A stretch of DNA of 41,979 nt from a plasmid, in sequence record NZ_CP071299.1. One strand, written 5' to 3'. Position 1 is the stretch's first letter. The number at the start of each line of letters is the position of its first letter. Position numbers: made by a program. Of the stretch, positions 9,001 to 18,000 are shown in pieces.

Positions 9001-12000
9001 ACTTTCTTTACAAATGGACGCAGTGTCTGTTTAACAGAGTTAAAAGGTTATCAGGTTACTAACATTAAGTCTGCTTTCCAACCACGTCGTCCAAATAATA
9101 GAATAGACAAAGTAAGGCATATGTTTAATAAAATCAACTTACATTGATAGTGAACTAAAGAGAAATTTTTAAAATGAATATTGAGTTGTTAATTAGAACA
9201 GGAGGATATAGATATTGTAAATACTAGGTGGATACTGTGCCCTATATGTGGCAATAAGACCCGTTTAAAAATGAGGGAAGATACTGAATTAAAAAATTTC
9301 CCTCTATTTTGTCCTAAATGCAGACAAGAAATTTTAATTGAAATAACGAAGTTTAGAAGGTTCTGTTGCAAAGTTTTAAATAAAGAATAAAATCCCTTAC
9401 GGTATCTATGATTTAAGCTGGGATTCCCAATAATACCTTGATTTCAGTACAGACCGAAAACCCGAAGAGAGTGCCTTCTTTTCGGGTTTTCTTATATAAT
9501 CCTCGGATGGCTTCCATACCTTTAATCGTGGGTGAGGCAGTGCGTAAACTTCGATAGAATTTATTGCGTCTCTTTACTGGACGATGGTCTTGTTCAATCA
9601 AATTATTCAGGTATTTAATGGTACGATGTTCTGTCCCTTGATAAAATCCGTATTCTTTTAGTTTCTTAAAGGCACTAGCAATTGATGGTGCTTTATCTGT
9701 GACTACAACCTTCGGTTCATCAAACTGCTTCACTAACCGCTTAAGAAAAGCATAGGCTGCTTGTGTGTCCCGTTTTTTACGTAACCAAATATCCAAGGTT
9801 AAACCATCTGCATCGATGGCTCGATACAAATAATGCCATTTTCCTTTAATTTTGATGTACGTTTCATCCATTTTCCATGAATAAAAGGATTTTTTATTTT
9901 TCTTTTTCCAAATTTGATAGAGTAGTTTGCCATATTCTTGCACCCAACGATAAATCGTCGTATGAGAAACGTTAATGCCACGATCATATAAGATTTCTTG
10001 AACTTCACGATAGCTAAGGTTATAACGAAGATAGTAGCCCACGGCTACAATAATCACATCCTGCTGAAATTGCTTTCCTTTAAAATGATTCATCGTCATT
10101 CCTCCTGCTATCTTTTTCTATTATTCTACCTTATTTGATAGTAGATTTAAAACTTTGCAACAGAACCAGATTAATTACCAATAAGAAAAAGTCAAAAGCA
10201 AATAAATTAAAATCAAACTGGAAATTACTTCTAAAAAATCAAACAAATATTTCCATTTCAGAGTTCAAAACTTGGAGAAGTTTTCCTTCTCCAAAGTACC
10301 ATCTTTTAACGGAATCTATGGTGATTGATCGACTACTCTCATTTTCTTCTGAACTAAAAGAAGCTTATGACATTTTCCATTTATTAATGTATCACTTTAG
10401 AAACAAAGATGACCGTTCCTTTTTCGAACTATTGAAAAATCTACCTGATAGCTTGGATACACAATTTAGAGATAAAATAGAAAATCTGATTTCCTATGAA
10501 GAAGGTATTAGAAACGCTCTTAAATATAATTTTTCCAATGGAAAAATTGAAGCTAAGAACACTCATATAAAAACACTTAAAAGAGTTTCCTACGGATTCA
10601 ACTCATTTACAAATATGCGTATAAGAATTTTCTTGATAAACGGCCTTATTAAAATTAAATAACTAAAAAAGATGATAAATCTGAGAGTAATCTCAAGTTT
10701 ATCATCTTATATATCCGACTCATCAGTCCGATTTGACAAAGAGCCCAAACTCAAAAGGTCTTCACATAGCGATTATATCTAATAAAAATTCATTAATTTT
10801 TTTACATTTTCAACAACCAGAATGTATCATTAACACTTTTACATCCTTATTGCATAACTCAAAAATTACATAACTTCCAATTCTCTCATCAACTGTTCCC
10901 ATTCATTAAAATAATTACCCTGACACCTTTTAACATCATCAATTGATTTTTGTATTTCCGTCAGTACTATATAATCAGAAGAATTGTTTGGTTCAGAAAT
11001 AATTTTATTCAATCTTTCTAATTCTTCATCATATTGATTTATTAACACTTCAAGTTTTTCAATTCGTTTCTCCTTCTTAACCTTCTCCTTCTCAATGGAG
11101 TTACGATCGCCTTTTACTGTGTTATTTTTCTCTACTTTCTGCTCAACTTTAATGTTAATAAATGGCTTTTCAGAATTCATCCTTTTTTTCTCGTACTCAC
11201 CATAAGTGGATTGTACAAACTCTACACCATCCTTATCAAAAACAAGCAATCTGTCAGCAATCTTATTAGTAAAATATCTATCATGTGACACAAAAATAAT
11301 TGTACCTTGATAACTGCATAAGATATTCTCTAAATTCTCTTTTCCAATAATATCCATGTGGTTTGTCGGTTCATCTAAGATTAAAACATTAGTACGTTTA
11401 TATAATAATTTACATAATGTCAATCTAACCTTTTCTCCACCTGACAAAGAGGACACCGGTCTAAAAACATCATCTCCACTAAACTGAAATGAGCCAAGAG
11501 CAGTTCTGACCTCTGTGTCATTTAGCTCAGGGTATTCGCTTTGAAAAATTTCGAATAGTGTATCATCTCCACTGATTTGAGCAAGCTGTTGGTCAAAATA
11601 GCTAATTTCAACATTGTATCCGAATTTAAAATCTCCAGACAATGCTGCCACACCATCCATAAGTGTTTTAAGCAACGTGGATTTACCAATACCATTACTC
11701 CCAACAATTCCAAGCTTCTGTCCCCTTTCAAGGTTGAAATTAACCTTTGCAAGAGGAGTATCATAGCCTATCACAAGTTCTGAAGCACTTAATACTTGCC
11801 TTGAACTACTGATTCTCGGTTGAAATTTAGACATATAAGTTTTTGTATCGTATTGGTCTGGTGCATTTAATATTTGCATACGCTGTAATAATTTAATTTT
11901 AGATTGCACCATTTTAGCTTTCGTAGGTTTATAACGAAAACGTTCAATCAAGCGTGTAATCCTTTCAATTTCTATCTGTTGCAAGTCGTAATCTTTTTGC

Positions 12001-15000: not shown

Positions 15001-18000
15001 ATTTCGTTTGAATAAGACGCTGCTTTTTCTACCCAAACTTTATTGATTCGAGAATTTGGCATATCTGGGTGAGAAACGATCACCAATGTTTTCATTGTTT
15101 CATCCTTAACATACTCAACTTTCGCACCAATAAAACAGTGTACGAAAGTTGAGTTACTTAAAAGTATTCTATTCTAAGAAATTCAAATTTGCGTGATTCC
15201 TAAGCTATTTATTTACAGCTTAAACTATAGAAGATGAACTAAACAATAACTAATCTTTACATAACTAAGTTATTACCCACGCTTTTTTAAACCTAATCCA
15301 GCTATTAAGGCAATGAGTATTGCCCCTGTAGCTGCAAGGAACGCATCTGAGTAGGACATAGCGTCCAATATATATAATGGATTTATCGGCTCAGTAGCAT
15401 CACGTCGAGCGGATAATAATGCTCCAATCATACCTGCTCCAGTTCCTGCTCCAAGGTACAAAGCACCTTGGAAAATCCCCATTCCGACACCAACCTTGTC
15501 TGCATCGAGTGCACTTACTGCGGCGTTATTTGCGGGAGAATTCGTGAATGCAAAAGCAATCCCTACTCCGAGGACCCCCACGGAAACTAACAGAGGTGAA
15601 GCACCAGATGCATAGGTGGACAAGAATAAGGTAGACAGCCCCATCAGAGTCATCCCAGTAATTATCAGACGTTTATCCCCAAATCGATCAGAAAGACGGC
15701 CAACGAAGGGAGATAAGATTGCAACAGCCACACCACCTGGCAACAATATCATTCCAGCCTGTCCAGAAGAGAGTCCATTCACCTCAATGACTAGTAATGG
15801 GACGAACACAAGAACAGCGAAATAAGCAAACATCGAAAAAAATGCAATTATGACCGTATTGACATAATCCTTGTTATTGAACAGGACAGGTGGTACAAAT
15901 GGATTTTCTGCGGTAACAATTCTCCAAATAAATCCCACCAAAGCTACAACAGAACCAATTAGGCTAGTTAACGATGAGAACGAAGAAAAACCAGAAGTTT
16001 CTCCTTGAGTGATGCCAAAAAGGAGTAATCCTACTGTGAGGCCGAGGAATAAACCACCAATGAAATCAAAGTTCTTATTGCTTCCTACGGATTCTGCCGG
16101 TTTAATTGTCGGTAACGCGTAGTAGGCACCAATAACAATCATAATGGCTAACAAAAATGTGAACCAAAACAAGGCATTCCACCCTAAATATTGACCAACT
16201 ACTCCACCAAATATTGGACCAGCAGCAGTTCCAACACCAATACTTCCTGCGATAATTCCCAAAGCTCCCCCACGTTTTCCTTGTGGGAAAACCTTCGAAA
16301 TTGCAATGACTGATAGAACTGGAATTGCGGACATCCCAGCACCCTGAACCATTCTTCCCAAAACCAACAATGGGAGGTTCGGGGCAATTGCACATAAAAG
16401 ACTACCACTTGCCAGAATCATAATGTCAAAGATATATAGCTTTCGTAACTCAAAAAAGTCTGAGATTCGACCATAAATCGGAACTCCAATCGCAAGAACA
16501 AGTGCAATACCACTAACTATCCAACTCACTTGAGATTTCGAAGCTTCTAAATCTTTGCTTATTAGTGGAAGTACGGGATTGACTGAATCAGACGTAATTG
16601 CACCTACAAGTACAGATAGGGAGAGTACCATCATTAAAAGCCTAGTAGAACCCCTTTTTTCAGATTGAATCATTTCTTTAGATTTACTATCCTTTTTCAT
16701 TTTATTTCCTCCTAAAATATATTGTGATTTTAGGAGGCTAAATCCACTGCTTTCACCATAAACCTCACCTCATATCTATTTATATTGTAAAACCAAATCA
16801 ACGAACTCACCATATTTCTACAGCATGATTAAAGATTCGGTTCTCCAAACTAACTGAACTGATCAAACAAAAAAAAGGCACCAGTTTAACAACCGGTGCC
16901 TAATCATTCGTATGCATTTTTACAAATGCAATAGATTCATAAATTTTTGCCCATTATATAAAAGGAGGCAAAAAGTTTTCCGGTAGTGTTTCCATTTTTT
17001 GTTTTTGTGAAAAAGGACATACTGATCCCGTTGTACCTAAATCCCCTGAAACTTTTACATGCTTTCTAAACTCGACATTAATGAAATCAATTCCCATTAC
17101 TTTTTGCCTCCTTTCTCATATTGTGATAATAACACAATAATGGCTCTTTGTCAAATCCGACTCATCAGTCCGATTTGACAAAGAGCCCAAAAATCATAAA
17201 AAAACCTCCTTAATTTTATAATTTAAATGTACCATAACTCATTAAGTATAACTATATAGGAACTATGAAAAAGGAACGGATTTTGGTACTTGATTTACTT
17301 AAAAAACATTTAGAAAAAGCAGGAAAATGAAATGGTACCATAAACGGTCGTTTATGGTACCATTCAAATTTATCCTTATTGTACAAAATAACAGCGAAAT
17401 TTTTAAATCTATTCCTTATCGATACAAATTCCCCGTAGGCGCTAGGGACCTCTTTAGCTCCTTGGAAGCTGTCAGTAGTATACCTAATAATTTATCTACA
17501 TTCCCTTTAGTAACGTGTAACTTTCCAAATTTACAAAAGCGACTCATAGAATTATTTCCTCCCGTTAAATAATAGATAACTATTAAAAATAGACAATACT
17601 TGCTCATAAGTAACGGTACTTAAATTGTTTACTTTGGCGTGTTTCATTGCTTGATGAAACTGATTTTTAGTAAACAGTTGACGATATTCTCGATTGACCC
17701 ATTTTGAAACAAAGTACGTATATAGCTTCCAATATTTATCTGGAACATCTGTGGTATGGCGGGTAAGTTTTATTAAGACACTGTTTACTTTTGGTTTAGG
17801 ATGAAAGCATTCCGCTGGCAGCTTAAGCAATTGCTGAATCGAGACTTGAGTGTGCAAGAGCAACCCTAGTGTTCGGTGAATATCCAAGGTACGCTTGTAG
17901 AATCCTTCTTCAACAATCAGATAGATGTCAGACGCATGGCTTTCAAAAACCACTTTTTTAATAATTTGTGTGCTTAAATGGTAAGGAATATTCCCAACAA

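Follow-up and report, generated by a model that had tools for sequence, protein, structure and literature searches.

ISVlu1 remnants in a Lactococcus-type optrA/fexA resistance block on plasmid NZ_CP071299.1

Layout of the resistance block

The window, meaning the whole 41,979-nucleotide stretch of plasmid DNA analysed here (NZ_CP071299.1), carries optrA, araC, orf138, fexA and erm(B) among pieces of an ISL3-family element and copies of IS1216. The ISL3-family element is the 1,526-bp ISVlu1, the name being taken from PMC10469678 and PMC9769644. The features discussed below are as follows.

9359-10167, minus strand: IS1216 (IS6 family), 809 bp, truncating ISVlu1; transposase ORF at 9413-10099
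10168-10745, plus strand: 3' piece of ISVlu1, 578 bp (ISVlu1 positions 949-1526), with the C-terminal part of the transposase and the 33-bp IRR (10713-10745)
10746-10753, plus strand: flank CAAACTCA, adjoining the IRR downstream of optrA
10866-12833, minus strand: optrA
13164-13994, minus strand: araC with its 5' end removed
13300-13311 and 15053-15064, plus strand: 12-bp direct repeat AATTTGGCATAT
13995-14059, no strand: 65-bp perfect palindrome (ISVlu1 IRL 1-32, A, reverse complement of IRL 1-32)
14060-14302, minus strand: UvrD/HelD-like helicase gene scrap, of which the final 11 bp (TTCCATTTCAG) also belong to the ISVlu1 fragment that follows
14292-14567, plus strand: internal ISVlu1 fragment, 276 bp (ISVlu1 positions 1032-1307)
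14557-17141, minus strand: Tn558 remnant (orf138, fexA and downstream sequence, without tnpA, tnpB and tnpC)
14679-15095, minus strand: orf138
15273-16700, minus strand: fexA
17142-17187, no strand: 46-bp stub, in which the final 16 bp of the IRR, reverse-complemented, run into a full 33-bp IRR (17155-17187) with an overlap of ATC
17188-17195, plus strand: CAAAAATC, read as the right copy of an 8-bp target duplication, in the 3' end of a resolvase gene beside erm(B)
17552-18289, minus strand: erm(B), between the stub and the inverted IS1216
18693-19501, plus strand: IS1216 copy, inverted relative to 9359-10167

OptrA, FexA and Erm(B) all exceed the curated NCBIfam cut-offs over their full length (1548.6 bits against 1450, 1053.8 against 900 and 565.9 against 525, respectively). 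Compared with the pE349-type protein, OptrA is the EDYDDI variant (K3E, A9D, N12Y, Y176D, G393D, N559I). The orf138 product matches a KefF/KefG-type NAD(P)H oxidoreductase at profile positions 2-131 of 170. The araC gene lacks 324 bp of 5' coding sequence, its longest ORF (13164-13985) encoding 273 of the 384 amino acids of the full gene and its product matching an AraC-type model at profile positions 124-383; this side of the block aligns to positions 8078-11295 of comparator L001, in which the full araC extends to 11619.

It had been proposed from the sequence alone that pieces of a single ISL3-family element lie between the optrA-araC and orf138-fexA blocks and at their outer edges, and this was borne out. 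Both ISVlu1 pieces are 99.3-99.8% identical to the complete copies of pBN62-optrA (99.8% for 10168-10745), and their translations match the C-terminal portion of NF033550, the ISL3 transposase model of NCBIfam, as fragments only: 10168-10662 covers model positions 232-369 of 370 (98.5 bits, against a whole-protein cut-off of 180) and 14293-14568 covers positions 257-332. The larger piece and its IRR are present as predicted, but they end at 10745 and not at 10746, which is already flanking DNA. ISVlu1 remnants are also not the only frame of the cluster, as had been thought, for two inverted IS1216 copies (9359-10167 and 18693-19501) frame it too.

The 3' piece begins directly at the terminal repeat of the first IS1216, which ends at 10167. 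This copy (NCBIfam IS6 transposase, 261.5 bits) is 99% identical to those at 5794-6602, 18693-19501 and 35938-36746 and has no 8-bp target duplication; target duplications were looked for around the IS1216 copies and none was found. The junction it forms at ISVlu1 position 948/949 occurs in no PLSDB record. No complete ISVlu1, with IRL, IRR and an 8-bp target duplication, is present in the window. On the other side, the junction of the IRR with the sequence downstream of optrA is identical in pBN62-optrA, L013-L016, L025 and L026, and CAAACTCA also lies beside ISVlu1 copy 3 of pBN62-optrA.

Junctions around the fexA segment

The prediction that fexA-orf138 is Tn558 cargo without tnpABC agrees with the comparison: 14557-17141 is 99.8% identical over 2,585 bp to the Tn558-type region of Staphylococcus aureus pGMI17-006, homology ends 122 bp beyond the orf138 stop, ahead of the position of tnpC in Tn558 (gene order from PMC6682170 and PMC7843796), and no tnpABC ORFs are found between 14060 and 14678. 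Relative to Tn558 (Tn554 family; Kehrenberg and Schwarz 2005, according to those parts of PMC7843796 and PMC6682170 that describe it), the window has orf138-fexA and their flanks in common, but the set of tnpA-tnpB-tnpC, orf138 and fexA is incomplete. The left break lies at an 11-bp microhomology; on the right the remnant is broken by an ISVlu1 end at 17141/17142, whereas Tn558-type sequence runs on in other plasmids.

The internal ISVlu1 fragment is an exact direct repeat of part of the 3' piece (10251-10526 = 14292-14567, spacing 4,041 bp). The exactness of this duplicate had been recognised, although its length is 276 bp and not about 277 (14291-14567). Its first 11 bp form a microhomology, TTCCATTTCAG, with the helicase gene, and its last 11 bp another, GCTCTTAAATA, with Tn558. 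Because it is joined by microhomologies on both sides, the sequence points to illegitimate recombination as the process that placed it, rather than the action of an ISL3 transposase or homologous recombination between IS copies. The helicase scrap, which gave a weak HelD match in a profile search, is 100% identical over 243 bp to a UvrD-helicase gene of Enterococcus faecium pC10-7-optrA. The patch from 14008 to 14700 is 100% identical in nine PLSDB plasmids; the 276-bp patch, an old feature, has been conserved in no fewer than nine Lactococcus and Clostridium perfringens plasmids. It would be older than the two hairpin junctions described next, having been patched in between the helicase gene and Tn558 by its two joints.

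The duplicate does lie between optrA-araC and orf138-fexA, but not directly. The real joint of araC with the fexA block is the 65-bp IRL/IRL palindrome plus the helicase-gene scrap. The two IRLs of this palindrome were overlooked in the original prediction, although they lie inside the region it described. As DNA, the palindrome folds into a hairpin of -32.4 kcal/mol (z = -14.8). Its flanks, GTCCATTC on the araC side and TCGTCACT on the helicase side, differ and come from separate contexts, and there is no target duplication. At the other end of the segment, the presumed 47-bp IRL+IRR stub (17142-17188) proved to be 46 bp long and to consist of a reversed IRR tip and a full IRR: its left arm agrees with the reverse-complemented IRR at 16 of 16 bases, while the IRL diverges after six. 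The stub hairpin has -19.2 kcal/mol (z = -11.3), and again no target duplication is seen, the flanks ACAATAAT and CAAAAATC being different and from separate contexts. The reported identity with 10713-10749 is exact over 37 bp (17155-17191, the 33-bp IRR and CAAA), but the trailing CAAA opens two distinct 8-bp flanks, CAAACTCA and CAAAAATC, and lies outside the IS. A MITE-like or internally deleted IS was considered for both structures and rejected, the stub being IRR'+IRR and the palindrome IRL+IRL', each without target duplication.

Both structures are absent from PLSDB, GTDB representatives and JGI metagenomes. The same junctions are present in five independent public assemblies (L013, L014, L015, L025 and L026). 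At the very base where the stub begins, 17142, plasmids pBN62, pLG728 and those of C. perfringens have the start of a reverse-oriented ISVlu1, either complete or longer than in the window.

Relatives of the block

We consider it probable, at roughly 0.8, that 10168-17187 represents the cargo portion of a Lactococcus-type optrA/fexA resistance unit that is already known and has ISVlu1 as its basis. The block is the published linezolid and florfenicol resistance arrangement of Lactococcus garvieae plasmids, here shortened by IS1216. PMC9769644, which cites Cai et al. 2021 (Clin Microbiol Infect 27:1358), gives the order ISVlu1-optrA-araC-truncated ISVlu1-NAD(P)H oxidoreductase-fexA for both L. 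garvieae B974 and pLG592-optrA. The window has the same upstream ISVlu1 and the same separation of optrA from fexA by araC, truncated ISVlu1 and the oxidoreductase gene. It also has the EDYDDI OptrA reported there for pLG592-optrA, a plasmid likened here by its published description, and a Lactococcus-like backbone (19.5 to 42 kb match Lactococcus plasmids). It differs in its upstream ISVlu1, which IS1216 has truncated at position 948/949. The palindrome, the stub, the helicase scrap and the microhomologies go unmentioned in the portions of PMC9769644 covered here.

The intact unit is seen in L013 and L025, where it measures 7,971 bp between 8-bp direct repeats of CAAAAATC in a small Rep3/erm(B) plasmid. 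Its order is complete ISVlu1, optrA, 5'-truncated araC, 65-bp palindrome, helicase scrap, 276-bp scrap, orf138-fexA (Tn558) and 46-bp stub. CAAAAATC also flanks the ISVlu1 IRL in pBN62-optrA, L013 and L025, and the reconstructed empty site is found at 100% over 400 bp in the Lactococcus sp. LG1267 plasmid NZ_CP071298.1. ISVlu1 makes 8-bp duplications elsewhere (AAAAAAAG around a complete copy in the pE349-like plasmid p6742_1; AAAAAAAT in PMC13596870). Judged from these sequences, CAAAAATC at 17188-17195 is the target duplication of an ancestral ISVlu1 insertion.

Among the relatives, pBN62-optrA (Lactococcus sp. bn62, NZ_CP120419.2) has the same ISVlu1, the same IRL-side flank and IRR/optrA junction, and the same fexA segment with helicase scrap and 276-bp patch. 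Unlike the window, it has three direct ISVlu1 copies, a full araC, and the fexA segment oppositely oriented relative to optrA, with neither palindrome nor stub. Two complete direct ISVlu1 copies flanking resistance genes, present in pBN62-optrA, also bound Tn7363 of Vagococcus lutrae, a pseudo-compound transposon with optrA and fexA (Zhu et al. 2022, J Antimicrob Chemother 77:921, as cited in PMC13599501 and PMC10269897), and ISVlu1-derived translocatable units have been reported (Yang et al. 2024, Vet Microbiol 292:110048, as cited in PMC11581948). As far as these citations describe it, Tn7363 resembles the window in combining ISVlu1 with optrA and fexA, movement being by ISVlu1-flanked segments or translocatable units. 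It differs in being 14,312 bp long with two complete copies, where the window has a 3' fragment, an internal fragment and two hairpin junctions. The pE349-type fexA-araCΔ-optrA core (represented by p6742_1, NZ_KY513280.1) has the same genes in the same relative orientation as the window, but its joint corresponds to a fusion of 13311 with 15053 at the 12-bp repeat AATTTGGCATAT, as a deletion between the two copies would give. These plasmids lack 13312-15052 and the ISVlu1 ends at 10745 and 17142; their ISVlu1 is a simple insertion at another site, flanked by the duplication AAAAAAAG.

Possible history and residual mobility

We infer a history of inversion and collapse for the two hairpin junctions. 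ISVlu1 would have inserted at CAAAAATC, and ISVlu1-flanked optrA and fexA segments would then have accumulated as a direct array, IS-optrA-IS-fexA-IS, a state still seen in pBN62-optrA. ISVlu1 contains a perfect 39-bp subterminal palindrome (positions 14-52), and recombination between the palindromes of the two copies flanking the fexA segment could have inverted it, leaving a perfect palindrome at each of its ends, the 65-bp IRL/IRL one and another of 2,987 bp. The latter might have collapsed between ATC microhomologies to the 46-bp stub. The remaining ISVlu1 would later have been truncated by IS1216, losing positions 1-948 with the IRL and most of the transposase gene. Carried out in silico from araC | IS | fexA segment | IS | CAAAAATC, inversion and collapse reproduce 13900-17300 at 3401 of 3401 bases, of which only the junction sequences are informative, the fexA segment having been taken from the window. 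No intermediate was found among the compared sequences. In pBN62 the middle ISVlu1 lies beyond the full araC (flank GATATACT), while the window junction is inside araC (flank GTCCATTC), so that the inversion model has to assume a further deletion or an independent insertion. A layout that orients fexA and optrA as in the window can give rise to the pE349-type joint, and araC is broken at the same base in the Enterococcus faecalis plasmid CP028728.1. The co-oriented layout may therefore be an old one and not the outcome of an inversion.

The shared orientation in pE349-type plasmids and CP028728.1, which may be original, also accommodates an unlikely alternative without any inversion of fexA. 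In this, separate ISVlu1 insertions formed two inverted pairs, a tail-to-tail pair separating araC from the helicase scrap and a head-to-head pair separating fexA from the erm(B) region, and each pair collapsed to its outer ends independently. Both junctions are indeed the outer tips of two inverted copies, but four insertions and two collapses are more events, and neither the single target duplication common to the outer ends nor the match of the fexA-segment flanks (AGTGACGA|IRL and IRR|ATTATTGT) to the direct arrays of pBN62, pLG728 and C. perfringens plasmids is explained. Repeated deletions mediated by the ISL3 transposase, with the stub an internally deleted, MITE-like IRL+IRR element, had been the explanation first offered, and it is now very improbable. 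All pieces do come from one ISL3 element, with junctions exactly at IS tips (10745/10746, 13994/13995, 14059/14060, 17141/17142 and 17187/17188). However, the stub is contradicted by its IRR-derived left arm and by the reverse-oriented ISVlu1 starting at 17142 in the comparators, both hairpin structures lack a target duplication, and the 276-bp fragment ends within the IS at microhomologies far from any inverted repeat. That the palindromic junctions are assembly artefacts is hardly credible: misassembly is a well-known hazard of palindromes and multi-copy IS elements, but both sequences recur with the same flanks in the five independent NCBI assemblies, and the stub junction CAAATCCGAC is novel, beyond what collapse of repeats can produce.

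A further suggestion is compatible with the main reading and adds to it. In strains with a whole ISVlu1 the intact unit might be an active single-IS transposon running from the ISVlu1 IRL to the stub IRR, the transposase skipping its own IRR for the distal one and moving optrA and fexA as an 8-kb piece, of which the window would hold an IS1216-truncated dead copy. We regard this as tentative, at somewhat less than even odds. The 7,971-bp unit between CAAAAATC repeats and the exact empty site are in its favour, and in L014 the stub IRR stops precisely at its tip against another flank, CATATGGT, inside a SpaA-type pilin gene that is uninterrupted in Lactococcus lactis pUC11C. The same observations would nevertheless be expected if ISVlu1 had simply inserted and homologous exchange had then taken place, at one end inside the IS and at the opposite end inside the 33-bp IRR, and the L014 contig stops within ISVlu1, leaving its left junction out of view.

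As to the mobility of the window copy under the main reading, the loss of positions 1-948 means that ISVlu1 can no longer move it. It could still move through its IS1216 copies, several of which flank the resistance genes as in the IS1216 translocatable units of PMC6682170. The two direct copies that would flank a pseudo-compound transposon or translocatable unit of the IS1216/IS26 type were not found, the nearest (9359-10167 and 18693-19501) being inverted and direct partners lying only farther off (5794-6602 and 35938-36746). Recombination between the 276-bp repeats might yield a 4,041-bp optrA circle, and between the 37-bp repeats a 6,442-bp circle with optrA and fexA. By analogy such circles would resemble those of PMC6682170 and of the Staphylococcus delphini Tn558 derivative, an unconventional circularizable structure in which non-IS direct repeats likewise flank resistance genes (PMC7843796), although the repeats here are far shorter than the 1,326 bp of that study. 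The copy could also spread by transfer of the plasmid itself. The block is itself ordinary, and its ISVlu1 remnants record the history of its assembly.

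ISVlu1 remnants and their junctions

The ISL3-family debris in the optrA-fexA block of the window (10168-17187) belongs to ISVlu1, an element which has been tied to optrA and fexA in Vagococcus, Enterococcus, Clostridium perfringens and Lactococcus (PMC10469678, PMC11581948, PMC13596870, PMC13599501). BLAST comparison of the complete 1,526-bp reference with the whole window returned only four related pieces. These are listed below, IRL and IRR being the left and right terminal inverted repeats of the element.

ISVlu1-related pieces, by window coordinates
10168-10745: ISVlu1 949-1526
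13995-14059: ISVlu1 1-32, a single A, and the reverse complement of 1-32 (the 65-bp palindrome of two IRLs)
14292-14567: ISVlu1 1032-1307 (the 276-bp fragment)
17142-17187: reverse complement of the last 16 bp of ISVlu1 and the 33-bp IRR, overlapping at ATC (the 46-bp stub)

Direct reading of the sequence, with exact extension of the repeats, showed the coordinates of the original prediction to be correct to within one base. The internal duplicate it had put at about 277 bp is indeed exact, with a length of 276 bp (10251-10526 and 14292-14567, in direct orientation), and the two IRR copies are identical over 37 bp (10713-10749 and 17155-17191). The stub, on the other hand, had been taken for an IRL joined to an IRR; as the IRL (GGCTCTATAATTT...) and the IRR tip (GGCTCTTTGTCAA...) diverge after six bases, it is a reversed IRR followed by an IRR. 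The two pieces of the window that match the ISL3 transposase model do so only in its C-terminal part. Complete ISVlu1 contains a perfect 39-bp palindrome at positions 14-52, and two complete, near-identical 1,526-bp copies are present in the Lactococcus sp. plasmid pBN62-optrA, which, with L. garvieae pLG728-optrA, was reached by plasmid searches. A CAAA motif was considered as part of the ISVlu1 end and rejected, since other copies are flanked by ATTATTGT and AAAAAAAG and the apparent CAAA match in a pE349-like plasmid is a BLAST extension. Nor is the stub or the palindrome a MITE, for neither has a target duplication and in each of them a single type of IS end is present in two copies.

The first 11 bp of the 276-bp fragment (TTCCATTTCAG) double as the continuation of a UvrD/HelD-like helicase gene, and its last 11 bp (GCTCTTAAATA) as the continuation of Tn558-type sequence. 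The fragment was evidently set in by two microhomology joints and not by IS-end events, so that its earlier reading as a trace of ISL3-mediated events does not hold. For the cluster as a whole the observation was confirmed and the interpretation partly supported. The patch at 14008-14700 must be old, since nine plasmids from L. garvieae, Lactococcus sp. and C. perfringens carry it with 100% identity. Two other junctions are clean ISVlu1 ends, at 14059/14060 within the helicase gene and, for an IRR, at 17141/17142 within Tn558-derived DNA. Position 17141 is not a natural end of Tn558, because identical sequence runs on uninterrupted beyond it in four other contexts (S. aureus, a pE349-like plasmid, pV1676 and pT17). 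In pLG728, pBN62 and C. perfringens plasmids a full or longer reverse ISVlu1 begins after fexA at the equivalent of base 17142, and the C. jejuni plasmid pCJFEX retains only some 13 bp of this reverse end ahead of an IS1216. The joint at 10745/10746, between the IRR and the region downstream of optrA, is common to the window and pBN62. No PLSDB record contains the araC/IRL joint at 13994/13995 or the joint of IS1216 to ISVlu1 position 949, and there was no complete PLSDB match to the full palindrome or to the full stub with both flanks; exact scans for the stub and the palindrome likewise gave zero matches in GTDB representative genomes and JGI metagenomes. An ORF of 90 aa at 14037-14309 is also called beside normal ISVlu1 copies and is thus not specific to the palindrome; looking it up gave extra contexts.

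Resistance genes, IS1216 framing and the related Lactococcus plasmid

OptrA, FexA and Erm(B) each scored over the curated cut-off of their protein models. By the same means the IS adjoining 10168 was found to code for an IS6 transposase, the AraC-type regulator to be without about 110 N-terminal residues, and orf138 to be a truncated KefF/KefG-type NAD(P)H oxidoreductase. The window has four near-identical copies of IS1216 and several diverged IS6 copies, at none of which target duplications or inverted 8-bp pairs were found. One IS1216 cuts ISVlu1 with its end at 10167 and a second, inverted copy lies past erm(B) at 18693-19501, so the cluster stands between inverted IS1216 copies. The framing by ISL3 remnants described in the original prediction is real; this outer IS1216 frame went unmentioned in it. 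A ribosomal protection gene of the TetM/W/O/S family (7207-9147) lies between directly oriented IS1216 copies at 5794-6602 and 9359-10167, an arrangement that makes a candidate translocatable unit of 3.6 kb. There is also a tet(L) gene at 3482-4858, and a lone IS6-type terminal repeat at 23865-23881 has no IS adjoining it.

One report describes L. garvieae B974 (contigs JAMXTB000000000) and pLG592-optrA with ISVlu1 upstream and with araC, a truncated ISVlu1 and a gene for an NAD(P)H oxidoreductase lying between optrA and fexA (PMC9769644). The layout at the level of the gene map is therefore already known, having been published for L. garvieae from human faeces. Relative to the pE349-type protein, OptrA of the window (10866-12833) has the changes K3E, A9D, N12Y, Y176D, G393D and N559I, or EDYDDI, which the same report gives as the variant of pLG592-optrA from L. 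garvieae LG592 (PMC9769644). In view of the gene order, this variant and the matches of the remainder of the window to Lactococcus plasmids, the window most likely represents pLG592-optrA or a plasmid very close to it. Five related contigs encode EYDDI, the B974 variant, which is without A9D. A sugar-utilisation block at 19534-26831 (aldose epimerase, PTS IIBC(A) and GH65 phosphorylase) is 95-99% identical to plasmids of L. garvieae, L. lactis and L. raffinolactis, which points to a Lactococcus host. Three iteron-like tandem direct repeats of 22 bp (31314-31391) lie directly upstream of a Rep-type initiator ORF (31454-32608), and the two together are probably the plasmid origin. About 3.5 kb around the rep region is enclosed by a pair of 48-bp inverted repeats, 98% complementary, at 30578-30625 and 34115-34162.

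Insertion site, other carriers and proposed history of the debris

The 8 bp after the IRR of the stub (CAAAAATC) are also the 8 bp before the IRL of the third ISVlu1 copy in pBN62. An empty site was reconstructed from 200 bp to the left of that IRL, one CAAAAATC and 200 bp to the right of the stub. All 400 bp of it match a 6.7-kb Lactococcus plasmid (NZ_CP071298.1) at 100% identity, and over 280 bp across the joint it is 99.6% identical to many staphylococcal and enterococcal plasmids, where the site is the 3' end of a resolvase gene adjoining erm(B). This match implies that both ends derive from one ancestral ISVlu1 insertion and that all of the optrA and fexA material lies inside it.

Contigs arranged like the window were found by looking up exact matches to the truncated AraC protein. 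Five public assembly contigs (L013, L014, L015, L025 and L026) each have the palindrome, the stub and the same flanking joints, and since these are independent assemblies the palindromic junctions are not an assembly artefact. In L013 and L025 the ISVlu1 beside optrA is complete, and the resulting unit of 7,971 bp has CAAAAATC on both sides. Assemblies with the intact unit include GCA_031931225.1 and GCA_031929565.1. Set against them, the copy of the unit in the window is a truncated derivative. In L014 (GCA_031931345.1, JARQDP010000017.1; 2797-2844) the IRR of the stub abuts CATATGGT instead, inside a SpaA-type pilin gene which is uninterrupted in the L. lactis plasmid pUC11C, the corresponding empty site. 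The unit is thus found at at least two sites.

How the debris arose may be approached through pBN62, which at the site shared with the window has a direct array of CAAAAATC, IS, optrA segment, IS, fexA segment and IS. Compared with this array, the window has the fexA segment and its two inner IS tips turned round as one block, without the IS bodies. Because a palindrome reads alike both ways, recombination in inverted register could take place between the 39-bp palindromes in the ISVlu1 copies on either side of fexA. An exchange in the left arm would leave the exact 65-bp IRL/IRL palindrome, with its central A, on one side and a perfect palindrome of 2,987 bp on the other. Long perfect palindromes are unstable in bacteria, and a deletion between ATC triplets near the outer tips of this one would yield a stub of exactly 46 bp. 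Simulation of the inversion and collapse regenerated window 13900-17300 base for base, which tests only the junction sequences as the fexA segment was taken from the window. An extra event would be needed, since the IRL abuts araC at about codon 110 and in pBN62 lies beyond a full araC. Later, ISVlu1 positions 1-948 were lost to IS1216. We put this history at roughly even odds, and our identification of the structure as a known one in a decayed state is much more secure.

The other explanation is that ISVlu1 inserted independently in inverted orientation, which is possible because the co-oriented layout appears old. A 12-bp repeat (AATTTGGCATAT) is present in the window in direct orientation, in araC (13300-13311) and in orf138 (15053-15064). 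The joint of truncated araC and truncated orf138 in the pE349-type plasmid p6742_1 corresponds to window 13311 fused to 15053 through this repeat, with the 1,753 bp between the copies deleted. The classic fexA-optrA core may hence have come from a co-oriented layout like that of the window; descent of that plasmid type from the window type is excluded by its lack of the ISVlu1 ends at 10745 and 17142. In the E. faecalis plasmid CP028728.1 (GCA_004332055.1; 4549-5992) araC is broken at base 13994 of the window and the Tn558 side resumes at 14571, and a DUF536 gene and a radical-SAM (cfr-like) gene replace the palindrome, helicase scrap and ISVlu1 fragment (13995-14570). Together these two cases suggest that the co-oriented fexA-orf138-...-araC-optrA layout is old and has circulated in enterococci.

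Mobility and significance

No ISVlu1 function is left in the window, because its ISVlu1 has lost the IRL and the greater part of the transposase gene. Resistance is due to optrA, fexA and erm(B), and several other routes of movement can be envisaged. Copies of IS1216 could mobilise the cluster, with direct partners at 5794-6602 and 35938-36746. A circle of 4,041 bp with optrA would result from recombination across the 276-bp direct repeats, and one of 6,442 bp with optrA and fexA from recombination across the 37-bp repeats; the plasmid itself could also be transferred. There are precedents for circles formed through non-IS direct repeats and through IS1216 (PMC7843796, PMC6682170).

The intact relatives allow a further reading, to which we give a probability of about one in three. 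The segment from the ISVlu1 IRL to the IRR of the stub might be a working 8-kb transposition unit, consisting of one IS and a distal solo IRR, which carries optrA and fexA together and is already at two or more sites (a Rep3/erm(B) plasmid at CAAAAATC and a plasmid pilin gene at CATATGGT). On this view the hairpin stubs would have been left over from an inversion driven by a palindrome, and the window would have an IS1216-inactivated copy. Occupation of two sites suggests, without proving it, transposition of the intact unit by means of one ISVlu1 and the distal stub IRR. For the pilin-gene copy (GCA_031931345.1) the predicted left junction is ...GATGCTACATATGGT|GGCTCTATAA; such an 8-bp duplication would not discriminate here, as homologous exchange would be expected to give it also. 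We found no published description of a palindrome-driven inversion by which an array of three ISs becomes a compact transposon with a single IS.

Resistance to linezolid and florfenicol through optrA is transferable, and the spread of the gene depends on its packaging. At the gene level the window offers nothing new, and its anatomy at base level is modestly useful, a tidy footnote. The ISL3 debris can be read as a record of three processes, namely transposase insertion, microhomology joints and palindrome-related rearrangement. The Lactococcus unit is tied to one insertion site of ISVlu1, which is also known in the empty state, and the classic pE349 fexA-optrA joint is linked to a 12-bp repeat that is still in the window. 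The sole reading with some novelty is that the intact 8-kb unit may need only one IS copy to mobilise optrA and fexA.
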